NCBI GenBank assembly: GCA_934130355.1
Contig: CAKOXV010000002.1
Span: forward strand, 4,204-68,203
Length of the DNA stretch: 64,000 bases
Direction of reading: 5' to 3'
Origin: an uncultured Clostridia bacterium
Lineage (GTDB): Bacteria; Bacillota; Clostridia; TANB77; CAG-508
Shown piece by piece: positions 2,173 to 46,634 of the stretch. Position 1 is the first letter of the stretch. The number at the start of each line of letters is the position of its first letter. Position numbers and translations under genes: made by a program. The notes under the pieces were generated by a model. The model was not told the origin of the DNA. It saw nothing but the letters and a program-made list of their open reading frames with translations, and did no database searches.

Positions 2173-2537
2173 AATTATATAACTTAGCTCAAGAGGCTTT
2201 ATGATACCATTGCAACCATACATATATATTAAATAAGGGAAAATTTTGTGCATCTAAACTTGAGTATAGAAAATCTTAAAGTACATACCCGAGGAATGCT
2301 CACGTCAAAAATGAATATATTACTATTCCATGGCAAAAACATAGCTGGGGTCTTCGTCGGGGGTCTTTGCCTTATTACATAGTAACATATTCATTTTTGG
2401 ACTAAGTGAGAGAGGCTCGGGTTGTACTTTTAGATTTTCTATACTCAAGTTTAGCTTGTCCAAAATTTGGAATGACTTTAATATATATGTATGGTTGCAA
2501 TGGTATCATAAAGCCCCTTGAGCTAAGTTGTATGATT
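2173..2537. repeat. Nested-palindrome element, copy 1 (about 365 bp, same orientation as copy 3)
   Basis: Left arm AATTATATAACTTAGCTCAAGAGGCTTTATGATACCATTGCAACCATACATATATATTAA pairs with right arm TTAATATATATGTATGGTTGCAATGGTATCATAAAGCCCCTTGAGCTAAGTTGTATGATT. The inner sequence is homologous to the copies at 21971, 41743 and 46280. Confidence 0.9.
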
Positions 2538-15322: not shown

Positions 15323-15409
15323 AATTTAATATATTACTTTCAATAGCCAAAACATATTTTGGGTCTTCGTCGGGGGTCTTGGCTTTATTTCATAGTAATA
15401 TATTAAATT
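15323..15409. repeat. Solo core hairpin (87 bp) of the nested-palindrome family
   Basis: AATTTAATATATTACTTTCAATAGCCAAAACATATTTTGGGTCTTCGTCGGGGGTCTTGGCTTTATTTCATAGTAATATATTAAATT is homologous to the central about 90 bp of copies 1 and 3, including the GGGTCTTCGTCGGGGGTC apex. Confidence 0.85.
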
Positions 15410-15596
15410 GCTTATAAAAAGAGACTCATTTGAGTAAAATGGAAACTTTAGAAAAAATTACCATAAATACTTGATTTTTACACAAAATTATAGTACAATA
15501 ATTATGTAAAAAATGTTCCTTTAACTTAGCACAATAAAAAATACACCTATTATTGTAGCTCGGTCTAAGGAGAAAAAGAAATAGGAGGTGTTAATT

Positions 15597-21970: not shown

Positions 21971-22335
21971 TAACATATAGTTGAGCAAAAAGGCTTGAAT
22001 AGCATACTTGGATTCATACATATATATTAAAAGCATTCCAAATTTTGGACAAGCTAAACATTCGTACAAAATCTAATAGTGCCAAAAGCGCCTCTTTCAC
22101 TTAGTCCAAAAATTAATATATTACTATGGAATAAGGCAAAGACCCACTATGGGGATGACCCTAGCTATGTTTTTGCCGTGAAATAGTAATATATTAATTT
22201 TTGACGTGAACATCCCTCTTTTGGCACTTAAGATTTTCTATACTCAAGTTTAGATGCACAAAATTTTCCATTATTTAATATATATGTATAAGTCCAATCA
22301 TGCTATCCGAGCCTTTTGTACTTAACTATATATTA
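21971..22335. repeat. Nested-palindrome element, copy 2 (inverted relative to copies 1 and 3). It starts at the base after the addA stop codon.
   Basis: CATACATATATATTAA...TTAATATATATGTATA inner boundaries. The inner arms are homologous to copy 4. The apex differs (GACCCACTATGGGGATGACCC). Confidence 0.9.
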
Positions 22336-29621: not shown

Positions 29622-31199
29622 ATGATTAAAATTAAAAGTAATTCAAAAGAAAAAATATGGAAAGTTGGGATATATGCAAGAATTTCGAGAGAAGACGAGA
29701 AAAGTGAAAAATATAAAGAGCAATCAGAAAGTATAGAAAATCAAATTAATTTTTTAGTTCCTATAATAGAAAAAAATGGTTGGGAGCTCGTAGAAATTTA
29801 TAAAGATGATGGATATACAGGAACAAATTTTGAAAGACCAGATTTTTTAAGAATGTTAAGAGACATTGAACTTGAAAAAATAAATTTAGTAATAACCAAA
29901 GATTTATCAAGGCTTGGAAGAGATTATATAGAAGTGGGAAAATTTATAGAAAGATATTTTCCTGTTAAAAATGTTAGATATATTGCTGTGAATGATAATG
30001 TCGATACTTATGATATAAATAATATTAATAATGATATAACACCATTTAAAGCAGTATTTAATGATATGTATTCAAAAGATATTTCAAAAAAAGTACGAAC
30101 ATCAATAATAACAAAAGCCAAAAGAGGAGAATGTATAAAAGCTTTTTTGCCTTATGGTTATAAAAAATCAATAAATGATAAAAATGTTATATTAGTAGAT
30201 GAAGAGGTAGCTGATAATATAAAATTAATATTTGATTTATATAAAAATGGAAAAAGTAAAAAAGAAATTGCCACAATATTAAATGAAAAAAATATAATAA
30301 CACCATTAAAATATAAAGAAAAAACAACTAATTATTATAATCCTAATTCAAAACACACATATAGGTGGAATACAACATCTATAAATAAAATTTTGAGAGA
30401 TAGAACTTATATAGGAGATTTGGTTCAGTTAAAATATAATAAAGTAAACTACAAAATCAAAAAAGTTGAGAAAAAGACACCTGATGAATATGTAATAATA
30501 AAAAATAATCATGTTCCAATAATAGATAATCAAACTTTCAATTTGGTACAAGATATGTTAAACAAGCAAACTAATGAATGGAATTATGGAAATGTTACTA
30601 AACATTTATTATCAGGTTTGGCTTTTTGCAAATGCGGAGGAAGAATAACTTATATTAAAAATAGTAAACAAAAATTTAGATGTATGTGTTCAAATTATAA
30701 AAAATATGGCAAAAGTTTTTGCACAAATGTACATATTAATGAGGATGAGTTGATAGAAGAAGTAATAAATTCATTAAAAGAGAATATTAAGCAGAATTTC
30801 AATATTAAAAATCTAAAGATAGTGTGGAAAAAAGATGAAACAGATTTTTTGAAAAATATACAAAAATTAAATAAAATGAAAGAAGAAACTAATAGGATAA
30901 TTGGCAACTTATATGAGGCTCAAAATAGTGGTCAAATTTCACAAGATACGTTTTTTATGCTAGTTCAAAAATATGAGGAACAAAGAAATTGCTATGAGAG
31001 AAAAATACAAAATATTAAACAATATGAACTAAAAAATGAGAAAATTCAAAATATGAGCCAAATGAAAATCATACGAAAGGTAAATGAAGTTTTAGAGTTT
31101 AAAGAGATAAATCAAGAAACTAAAAATTTGATTTTTAAATTAATTGATAAAATTATAATTGATGATAAAAACATAGAAATAAAATATAAATTCAAGTGA
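29622..31199 (+). CDS. Large serine recombinase (resolvase/invertase N-domain, recombinase domain, zinc ribbon, coiled coil)
   Basis: VGIYARISRED...S..NQ catalytic region, DDGYTGTNFERPDF, ITKDLSRLGRDY, and CKCGGR...CMCSNYKKYGKSFC zinc ribbon. Its stop codon lies 13 nt from the AAGGCCA core. Confidence 0.9.
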   Translation: MIKIKSNSKEKIWKVGIYARISREDEKSEKYKEQSESIENQINFLVPIIEKNGWELVEIYKDDGYTGTNFERPDFLRMLRDIELEKINLVITKDLSRLGRDYIEVGKFIERYFPVKNVRYIAVNDNVDTYDINNINNDITPFKAVFNDMYSKDISKKVRTSIITKAKRGECIKAFLPYGYKKSINDKNVILVDEEVADNIKLIFDLYKNGKSKKEIATILNEKNIITPLKYKEKTTNYYNPNSKHTYRWNTTSINKILRDRTYIGDLVQLKYNKVNYKIKKVEKKTPDEYVIIKNNHVPIIDNQTFNLVQDMLNKQTNEWNYGNVTKHLLSGLAFCKCGGRITYIKNSKQKFRCMCSNYKKYGKSFCTNVHINEDELIEEVINSLKENIKQNFNIKNLKIVWKKDETDFLKNIQKLNKMKEETNRIIGNLYEAQNSGQISQDTFFMLVQKYEEQRNCYERKIQNIKQYELKNEKIQNMSQMKIIRKVNEVLEFKEINQETKNLIFKLIDKIIIDDKNIEIKYKFK

Positions 31200-31213
31200 C
31201 CCAAAATGAACGA

Positions 31214-31453
31214 AGGCCATGGTTCTTCAAGCCATCTCCATTTGTTACATGGAAATTGAATTGTCAAAGGTCCATAAACTTTTTGATATTTATCTGTTAA
31301 TTCTCTATATTCTTTGGCATATTTTCTGTGTAAACAAAGTGCTTTTTCATCATCAACGTGAGTATCTAAATATAATCCTAATTCAGTCATAGCAAAATTC
31401 AAACACTTAATTCTTTCTAACATATCTTCTCTACAATTTTCGTTATCTAGCAT
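31214..31453 (-). CDS. cotJB: Spore coat protein CotJB, 5' segment (codons 1-80). The track ORF 31112-31453 reads through into the element.
   Basis: MLERIKCLNFAMTELGLYLDTH.DD..AL...YA..Y..L...Y...YGPLT...W.W..EPWP is the CotJB pattern. After codon 80 the unexcised frame gives a hydrophobic nonsense tail (SFILGHLNLYFISMFL...). Confidence 0.85.
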
Positions 31454-31815
31454 TTGTTACACCCCTTTCCAATTGTATTTGTGGCTTCTAAGAATTCATT
31501 TGTCCTCATTGATTGGCAAGGCATATAAGGGCTAACTAATTCAGGAAATAAAGTTCCCATTTTTAAGCCAACACAAGGTTTAAAAGTTTGGTCCATAAAT
31601 TGCCATGGAACATAACTTTGACCTAACATTGGATTCTCTGGAAATACACTTACTTCGTATTCTTCATCAAATCCACATTCACACATATCTTTTTCATAAT
31701 CTTCACAATTGCATGAACACATATTATTACATTGATCTTCTATTATAGTATTATCAGTAGTGTTAGAAACACTATTATTCATACAACAGCATTTTTTGAA
31801 ATTTCTAGTAAACAT
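31447..31815 (-). CDS. cotJA: Spore coat associated protein CotJA
   Basis: The C-terminal PMLGQSYVPWQ.....F.P..GL..GTLFPEL..PY motif is typical of CotJA. Overlaps the cotJB start by 7 nt. Confidence 0.8.
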   Translation of the reverse strand: MFTRNFKKCCCMNNSVSNTTDNTIIEDQCNNMCSCNCEDYEKDMCECGFDEEYEVSVFPENPMLGQSYVPWQFMDQTFKPCVGLKMGTLFPELVSPYMPCQSMRTNEFLEATNTIGKGCNKC

Positions 31816-41742: not shown

Positions 41743-42109
41743 TTATCCATATAGCTTGACACAATGAACTTCCTGGTATGCTTGGGTTCCATACATATAT
41801 ATTAAATAATGAAAAATTTTGTGCATCTAAACTTGAGTATAGAAAATCTTAAAGTGCCAAAAGAGGAATGTTCACGTCAAAAATTAATATATTACTATTC
41901 CATGGCAAAAACATAGCTGGGGTCTTCGTCGGGGGTCTTTGCCTTATTCCATAGTAATATATTAATTTTTGGACTAAGTGAAAGAGGCGCTTTTGGCACT
42001 ATTAGATTTTATACGAATGTTTAGCTTGTCCAAAATTTGAAATGTTTTTAATATATATGTGTGGAACCCAAGCATACCAGGAAGTTCATTGTGCTAAGTT
42101 ATATGTTAA
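41743..42109. repeat. Nested-palindrome element, copy 3 (about 367 bp), in the divergent asd / ymdB intergenic region
   Basis: Perfect 32-bp copy-specific stem CACAATGAACTTCCTGGTATGCTTGGGTTCCA / TGGAACCCAAGCATACCAGGAAGTTCATTGTG around the conserved inner sequence. Confidence 0.9.
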
Positions 42110-46279: not shown

Positions 46280-46634
46280 AAATAACTCATCTCAAATGGC
46301 TTGATATCACACCCTGGACTCATACATATATATTAAAAACATTTCAAATTTTGAACAAGCTAAACTTTCGTATAAAATCTAATAGTGCCAAAAGCGCCTC
46401 TTTCACTTAGTCCAAAAATTAATATATTACTATGGAATAAGGCAAAGACCCCCGACGAAGACCCCAGCTATGTTTTTGCCATGGAATAGTAATATATTAA
46501 TTTTTGACGTGAACATTCCTCTTTTGGCACTTTAAGATTTTCTATACTCAAGTTTAGATGCACAAAATTTTCCGTTATTTAATATATATGTATGAGTCTA
46601 GGGTGTGCTGTCAGGCCATTTGAGTTAAACTATT
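46280..46634. repeat. Nested-palindrome element, copy 4 (same orientation as copy 2), between recA and recJ
   Basis: Outer stem CTCAAATGGCTTGATATCACACCCTGGACTCA / TGAGTCTAGGGTGTGCTGTCAGGCCATTTGAG. The inner part is homologous to the other copies. Confidence 0.9.

Follow-up and report, generated by a model that had tools for sequence, protein, structure and literature searches.

The 64,000-nucleotide stretch analyzed here (the window; assembly GCA_934130355.1, contig CAKOXV010000002.1, positions 4,204 to 68,203 of the forward strand) comes from an uncultured Clostridia bacterium and contains a family of nested palindromic repeats of about 360 bp, which is real, non-coding and far above chance. 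Its modules are found apart from one another as well as in different combinations, conserved sites have the element, lack it or have a replacement, pairing is kept through double changes, and copies flip and exchange core segments. The family is not a new type of gene; it is an unusual form of a familiar kind of bacterial repeat. The explanation we favor, with moderate confidence, is that its members are non-coding, non-autonomous foldback elements, resembling MITEs (miniature inverted-repeat transposable elements) or REPINs, and that correction from arm to arm, flipping, and gene conversion among copies have shaped them.

Anatomy of the repeat family

An earlier note on this DNA, made from the sequence alone, had reported four full copies, and all of them were recovered: copy 1 at 2173-2537 (+), copy 2 at 21971-22335 (-), copy 3 at 41743-42109 (+), which is the copy given in that note, and copy 4 at 46280-46634 (-). 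These are imperfect palindromes of 355-367 bp that can be aligned along their entire length in copy-versus-copy alignments of the window. An inverted-repeat finder also detects all four, with arms of 44-73 nt that are 86-93% complementary. The boundary motif CATACATATATATTAAATAA has nine sites at up to three mismatches (both arms of the four copies and one chance site) where 0.16 are expected, and the apex-flank motif GGCAAAAACATAGCTGGGG has four sites where 0.00 are expected. The solo core listed with the full copies exists as the innermost hairpin only, 84 bp long at 15323-15406 (+) and 87% identical to copy 3.

Each unit is built of three nested modules: an inner hairpin of 82 bp, a middle module of ~190 bp with invariant 13-bp boxes, and outer arms of ~45 bp. 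In copy 3, the left outer arm (41748-41792, +) pairs with the right outer arm (42061-42105, +), perfectly over 32-33 bp. Between them lies a core of 268 bp (41793-42060, +), which is bounded by the invariant boxes ACATATATATTAA and TTAATATATATGT and carries conserved blocks specific to each arm (GAGGAATGTTCACG on the left, AGTGAAAGAGGC on the right). The innermost 82-bp hairpin module (41884-41965, +) reads TTAATATATTACTATT ... AATAGTAATATATTAA with the apex GGGGTCTTCGTCGGGGGTC. The corresponding cores are found at 2220-2490 in copy 1, whose palindrome reaches ~2161-2549, at 22018-22287 in copy 2 and at 46324-46591 in copy 4. The core of copy 4 is 98% identical to that of copy 3. Copy 1 has a divergent core type (89% vs copy 3); its stem shows compensatory changes of its own, and its right arm is partly 'corrected'.

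Some features that had been assigned to all copies hold for only part of the family. The outer-terminus consensus TATARCTTRRC fits copies 1 and 3 but not the other two, and the G-rich apex is common to all copies except copy 2, where it is replaced by the variant AGGGTCATCCCCATAGTGGGTC. The bulges and mismatches said to be the same in every copy are the same in copies 2, 3 and 4, but not in copy 1, where part of the right arm is an exact mirror of the left arm. Similarly, the copy-specific stems are perfectly complementary in copy 3 and not in the others; over 46 nt, the self-complementarity of the outer arms is 93% in copy 1, 89% in copy 3 and 78% in copies 2 and 4. The outer segments have diverged between copies, as the note had stressed, but they are still recognizable homologs of equal length with 52-74% identity.

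Modules in other genomes

Relatives of the family were found by gapped searches specifying the paired 13-bp ends alone. The ends of the inner hairpin, TTAATATATTACT ... AGTAATATATTAA, retrieved five copies in the metagenome-assembled genome (MAG) BRZ_EF__bin101 and a single copy in a different Clostridium MAG (L017). In BRZ_EF__bin101, the inner hairpin stands at the center of a different palindromic family with arms of 1-3 tandem units of GGGAAATTTGGGGACGGTTCTCTTTTT (L018:2033-2331, L020:5633-5980, L019:2446-2691, L015:600-865 and L014:3505-3575; inner pair GGGACAGAC...GTCTGTCCC). Members of this second family either are simple hairpins that resemble terminators (L014) or have the 82-bp hairpin at their center. 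The solo hairpin of the window is 94% identical to the solo copy in L014, and the two loci are non-syntenic. In 10 of 11 inner-hairpin contexts, the 4-9 bp beyond the TTAA ends are complementary, yet specific to each copy. From these 11 contexts, we infer that the inner hairpin has a preference for the dyads of palindromes.

The ends of the middle module, ACATATATATTAA ... TTAATATATATGT, identified one locus (L021/23/25/28/29) in a second gut species that is related to Clostridium sp. CAG:356. Here, the core has ~75% identity to that of the window, a different apex hairpin, and outer arms of 22 bp that are unrelated to those in the window but complementary to each other. The same boxes also occur in a ~255-bp palindromic element in metagenome contigs of 33-42% G+C (L022:630-1004, L026:1841-2215, L027:2717-3095, L030:2981-3310). 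This element has only the 13-bp boxes in common with the window family and possesses its own conserved outer stem CCAACAAATGCNCA; the box may be shared by chance or as a common recognition site. Two further matches, L024 and L016, look like chance.

Presence, absence and replacement at conserved sites

The Asd protein of the window is encoded on contigs from Hadza and other human-gut metagenomes; the nearest other Asd proteins have 83% identity. In the same species, each of the four sites is occupied in every contig that covers it. As expected of a multi-copy repeat, many independent metagenome contigs end within the element or the solo hairpin, and the element breaks metagenome assemblies of this species. 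At the syntenic loci of relatives (~80% Asd identity), no trace of the element was found, and the recA-recJ spacer measures 76 bp in these relatives vs 451 bp in the window. In the relative carrying Asd P0019, the dapA gene (DHDPS) beside asd is called as two open reading frames (ORFs) of 119 and 146 aa (L011:11062-11932; likewise in L012 and L013), which suggests a frameshifted or split dapA.

The family is lineage-restricted. Its hosts are uncultured gut Clostridia that form spores, are AT-rich and belong to a clade related to 'Clostridium sp. CAG:356'. A 21-mer shared without change by all copies had no match in 185,579 species-representative genomes, JGI metagenomes or IMG/VR. A phage or plasmid origin was ruled out, as blastn ('distant') returned no phage or plasmid match and the IMG/VR scans were empty or gave chance matches within coding sequence (L044/L045).

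A further comparison is offered by the spoVB-rplM spacer, which three sister species (SpoVB 88-90% identical) share almost unchanged from rplM to the spoVB promoter (TTGATA-17-TATAAT). Directly 3' of the -10 box, 26 nt without a hairpin are present in the CAG:356-like genomes (L051/L053), the core together with outer arms of its own in the L021 species, and a solo inner hairpin in the L047-50 species. This comparison shows that modules come and go at a conserved site, that the outer arms arrive with the element and were not pre-existing in the target, and that two different modules have used the same spot. When L047:3648-4000, L051:3754-4000 and L021:1855-2375 are aligned, the few dozen nt past the -10 box are wholly different and the other ~200 bp of the spacer are nearly invariant. 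The region past the spoVB -10 box is a local hot spot for insertion or replacement.

Among the candidates offered in the earlier note, a non-autonomous mobile element that nests in hairpin loops is thus the one that gained most from the solo and dyad occurrences, the spoVB polymorphism, the absence from syntenic relatives and the broken contigs.

Flipping and exchange between copies

Copies 3 and 4 have cores that are 98% identical and arms that are only 52-57% identical, and the phylogeny of the arms is incongruent with the similarity of the cores. Across copies 2, 3 and 4, the core stems are nearly invariant, while the outer stem is near saturation. Such a contrast between a conserved core and diverged arms is not predicted by a master-copy MITE model. 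Selection on an RNA also fails to predict it, since it would leave the core stems just as free to covary as the outer stem.

A strain with 99.2% average nucleotide identity (ANI) over 9 kb carries the recA-recJ copy in the opposite orientation at the same junction (...TATAATATTAA|; contig L004/L055). The L004 contig ends inside the element and leaves the far arm unseen, but the visible arm is contiguous with unique flanking sequence within k = 141, and the flip is therefore probably real and not an assembly artifact. The core of the flipped L055 copy is a mosaic of alleles of the copy 1 and copy 4 types, and its visible arm is a mosaic of both window arms with private changes added. The flip, the mosaic core and arm, and the mirrored right arm of copy 1 are DNA-level signatures of inversion between arms, gene conversion between copies and arm-to-arm templated correction. 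Concerted evolution of the core through gene conversion between copies is the best available account of the near-identical cores, and the L055 mosaic is direct evidence for it. The diverged arms would then confine the conversion tracts, perhaps aided by the invariant 13-bp boxes.

Other accounts of the arms did not hold. Hypermutable outer arms are ruled out, as copy 3 differs by 2 nt between the window and the strain at 99.2% ANI and by none in its arms. The idea that the arms are an older independent palindromic family which the core has entered was rejected for this genome, where arms are found only beside cores in ~80 kb; they are also absent at the 'empty' spoVB site. An orientation fixed relative to the downstream gene had seemed plausible, with the left end pointing towards the gene start in the four window copies and in L021, but is rejected by the flipped L055 copy. 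Finally, a role of the arms as CRISPR-like guides or spacers was rejected, since they are diverged homologs with one 14-mer elsewhere in the window and no exact matches in IMG/VR. This 14-nt exact match to the outer arm of copy 3 (TAACTTAGCACAAT) lies at 15522-15535, upstream of rpsO and 116 nt downstream of the solo hairpin, and may be a relic of an outer arm or a chance match (E = 0.013, small search).

Proposed mechanism

Under our preferred explanation, the elements move, or have moved, as DNA, and an enzyme encoded at some other place in the genome would mobilize them in trans. Preferred targets would be the dyads of palindromes and other easily melted AT-rich sites, such as the positions just past a -10 box. 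Nesting might have arisen when hairpin modules landed in the centers of older palindromes, after which the composites could spread as units. Complementarity between arms would be kept by intramolecular templated correction, i.e., quasipalindrome template switching or arm-to-arm conversion, and not by selection on an RNA. Near-identical cores beside diverged arms would reflect gene conversion between copies, limited in extent by the diverged arms. The element places a hairpin of 170 bp in the 5' untranslated region (5' UTR) or intergenic transcript of asd, recJ, spoVB and other genes, and any effect of such a hairpin on the neighboring genes would be a by-product.

Folding, covariation and alternative explanations

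Copy 3 folds as a single rod with -173.9 kcal/mol on the + strand and -157.1 kcal/mol on the - strand, corresponding to z ~ -17.6 against dinucleotide shuffles. In a six-sequence alignment of the full element, 90.8% of cells are paired. Both sides have changed in 41 of 126 pairs, compared to 22.9 +/- 2.7 for shuffled columns (a value as high was reached in 0 of 500) and to 7-17 with partners slid by 1-3 columns. For the inner hairpin, aligned across twelve sequences, double changes are seen in 10 of 31 pairs, with nearly no one-sided (G-U) intermediates. Pairing is therefore clearly maintained, and covariation of this kind does not separate RNA pairing from DNA pairing.

Several observations weigh against the foldback-element explanation. 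Firstly, the top strand is the more stable one in all six sequences, by 3-17 kcal/mol, and core mismatches are 7-9 G.T vs 1-5 A.C, the sequences in both comparisons representing two or three independent lineages only. Secondly, comparison of the left arms with the reverse-complemented right arms reveals four differing blocks that are each conserved between two species, for example GAGGRATGTTCAC-GTC on the left vs GMGCCTCTTTCACTTAGTCC on the right, and GTGCATC vs GGACAAGC. The stems between these blocks covary (e.g., GTGCCAAAAG/CTTTTGGCAC vs CAATAAAATG/CATTTTATTG). Arm-specific blocks and internal-loop motifs that are kept while stems covary are also expected of a functional RNA or a protein-binding hairpin. 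Thirdly, all sampled strains have the identical set of four copies, so that nothing indicates transposition at present. Nor is the 'empty' spoVB site cleanly empty, as the 26-nt segment differs in all three species, and the candidate duplications, TA for the core and TTAA for the inner hairpin, are palindromic and merge with the stem, so that there is no unambiguous target-site duplication. No transposase or other mobilizing enzyme, and no autonomous element with the same ends, was found among the Pfam-annotated genes of the window and the examined loci. A sensitive nhmmer profile built from nine arms detected no outer arm without a core in ~80 kb of this species. Lastly, the termini are the best conserved part of classical MITEs, whereas the window family has a conserved center and diverged termini.

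The main rival is a functional structured RNA, the rod-like molecule considered in the earlier note. It might act in cis, as a hairpin in 5' UTRs or intergenic transcripts, or in trans, with GAGGRAUGUUCACG / AGUGAAAGAGGC as functional internal loops and a variable outer stem that merely closes the rod. The very stable fold, the strong covariation, the favored top strand, the excess of G.T over A.C mismatches in the core, and the arm blocks and loop motifs conserved between two species all speak for such an RNA. Additionally, copies lie 36-170 nt upstream of start codons, and the L021 element is almost certainly transcribed because it starts right after the spoVB -10 box. Nevertheless, we consider a structured RNA unlikely. 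The covariation that supports it comes with nearly no G-U intermediates in the inner hairpin, where changes are Watson-Crick double substitutions. The mismatches of the outer arms are transitions without strand bias, and near-invariant core stems in copies 2, 3 and 4 beside a near-saturated outer stem fit gene conversion better. Orientation relative to flanking genes alternates, and the flip relative to recJ in a near-identical strain counts against a strand-specific RNA. A scan of copy 3 revealed no internal promoter or terminator, and no consistent promoter was seen by eye at the right end of the five copies examined. Moreover, a near-perfect RNA duplex of 170 bp would be a substrate for RNase III.

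A known RNA family was ruled out by an Rfam search (4227 models) that gave no matches at gathering threshold in the whole window, in line with the note's failure to recognize a named family. For the element, hits at E-values up to 10 were limited to generic miRNA-precursor hairpins and MicA, far below threshold. The 64 kb contain no tRNA gene, and at the same gathering threshold asd-dapA has no lysine riboswitch upstream and rpsO no ribosomal-protein leader.

A second rival holds that the element is a structural or protein-binding DNA site kept by the host, comparable to repetitive extragenic palindromic (REP) sequences and BIMEs, where a cruciform or hairpin is bound by a nucleoid, topoisomerase or recombination protein and the arm blocks are putative binding sites. 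Copies are strictly intergenic and recur roughly every 4-20 kb, the boxes ACATATATATTAA / TTAATATATATGT are invariant across species, and motifs of the GRATGTT type are repeated in direct orientation on both arms. Compensatory changes of Watson-Crick type only would suit DNA pairing, and a site that functions in either orientation agrees with the flip. However, close syntenic relatives manage without the element, sister species have different modules, or none, at one and the same site, and no candidate binding protein was identified. A host-kept site of this kind is thus improbable, more so than a structured RNA.

It is likewise improbable, to a similar degree, that the family represents something new in kind. 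This would be either an undescribed mode of propagation or a large structured RNA of a new class, whose internal loops are conserved. In the former case, hairpin modules would invade single-stranded or extruded DNA at dyads and promoter bubbles and build onion-like composites, and the ACATATATATTAA-bounded core would be 'homing' between copies independently of the outer arms.

Coding capacity and genomic setting

The element contains no ORF of at least 60 aa, as the earlier note had observed, and the longest is 35 aa. An ORF of 28-29 aa (MFTSKINILLFHGKNIAGVFVGGLCLIP) crosses the apex of copy 3 at 41868-41954 (+); the other three copies have it at the equivalent position, and none of the four ORFs is interrupted. 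This raises the possibility of a small-protein locus or one resembling a type I toxin-antitoxin system, in which the 28-aa ORF would be translated from the top strand of a highly folded mRNA. Type I toxin mRNAs are typically encoded by intergenic loci that exist in multiple copies and have a long fold-back structure, part of the 28-aa peptide is hydrophobic, and the frame in copy 2 is kept despite an apex insertion of 3 nt. The intact ORF carries little weight because the copies are 89-98% identical. The GAGG sequence lies 1 nt from the ATG, which leaves no usable spacing for a ribosome-binding site, and a membrane helix would need a longer hydrophobic stretch. The ORF has only 9 aa in the L021-type element, and the solo hairpins are frameshifted and lack a start. 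A small peptide or type I toxin is largely refuted by this non-conservation, and we regard it as highly implausible.

The four full copies alternate in orientation (+,-,+,-) within 45 kb, and no further copy was found in another 10 kb past the right end of the window. The Pfam annotation bears out the housekeeping neighbors named earlier (ScpB, AddA-type, Asd/YmdB and RecA/RecJ) and the lack of an adjacent transposase. Copy 1 is preceded by LiaF-like and DUF4097 genes and a 67-aa ORF and followed by ScpB and ProRS. Copy 2 begins directly 3' of the stop codon of the AddA-type helicase gene, which follows PNPase, and has Fic on its other side. Copy 3 lies between the divergent asd and ymdB genes, with DapA and Asd before it and YmdB and SpoVS after it. 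Copy 4 is situated just 3' of the recA terminator and 45 nt ahead of recJ, which is followed by RelA. The solo hairpin is located 4 nt past the stop codon of its upstream ORF and upstream of rpsO.

The sole recombinase seen in the region is a large serine recombinase (Resolvase, Recombinase, Zn_ribbon_recom) encoded at 29622-31199 (+), beside cotJA/cotJB (31112-31815, -), with the nearest element copy ~7 kb away; it may be a recombinase of the sporulation type (SpoIVCA-like) or of a prophage.

Comparison with known systems

The closest known systems are the palindromic bacterial MITEs and the REPIN/BIME mosaics. Membership in either is not established, since no target-site duplication or cognate transposase was found, the ends are less conserved than the center, and neither tagged REPs nor a RAYT was seen.

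Two other types of palindromic DNA can be set aside. Integron attC sites are imperfect palindromes of 57-141 bp with R''/R' core sites (RYYYAAC / GTTRRRY) that lie in cassette arrays next to intI, while the window elements are 360 bp long, lack such end sites and lie 4-20 kb apart between housekeeping genes with no adjacent integrase. PATEs, derived from IS200/IS605, lack terminal inverted repeats, carry distinct hairpins in subterminal position and are oriented according to the replication strand; the window family has long terminal inverted repeats, and its copies alternate in orientation within 45 kb.

The window family resembles palindromic bacterial MITEs such as Correia/NEMIS, ERIC/IRU, RUP, Nezha and Chunjie. 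These are small, non-coding, intergenic, multi-copy elements without a transposase, they fold as long stem-loops that comprise the whole element, and they are present or absent among related genomes (PMC3184786). The window family is non-coding and shorter than ~600 bp, has terminal inverted repeats, although the outermost 45 bp differ between copies, and consists of dispersed copies with presence/absence differences. Unlike these MITEs, it has no resolvable target-site duplication and no parent insertion sequence (IS) with matching ends was found, and its three nested palindromic modules occur elsewhere in other combinations. Standard MITE models leave a conserved center with diverged, co-varying ends unexplained.

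REPINs and the REP-BIME mosaics, which are mobilized by RAYT Y1 transposases, share with the window family a hairpin doublet preserved via compensatory changes, mosaic combinations, vertical persistence over long times, all strains having the same copies, and an enzyme that is not adjacent to most copies (PMC3116915, PMC3333891). REPs are G+C-rich palindromes of 20-40 bp with GTAG/CGTC tags, located at the ends of REPINs around a variable middle spacer (PMC3116915, PMC3333891). The layout of the window family is the reverse, with a conserved center and variable ends; it is AT-rich and ~4 times longer, its ends are AT-rich, non-conserved and without a GTAG/CGTC tag, and no RAYT or Y1 transposase was found among the Pfam-annotated genes of the window region.

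A preference for dyads or loops is also known from palindrome-inserting IS elements, such as IS1397/ISKpn1 in PU loops and IS110/IS1111 in REP or attC sequences (PMC1525189, PMC12288879), and REP palindromes are targets of IS elements (PMC1525189). However, those are autonomous elements with a transposase, whereas the inserted unit of the window family is a non-coding hairpin of 82 bp. Quasipalindromes are corrected by template switching (PMC7202029), and this process or arm-to-arm conversion can account for copy-specific complementary arms and for the right arm of copy 1 without structural selection. It is a mutational mechanism and not an element family, and alone it should erase the asymmetries of the core, which is seen only in part, in copy 1. 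If our explanation is correct, a clade of uncultured gut Clostridia joins the bacteria with persistent, transposase-less hairpin repeats, and provides an unusually clear example of modular palindrome-in-palindrome growth, with flipping and conversion between copies and the reuse of one post-promoter site.

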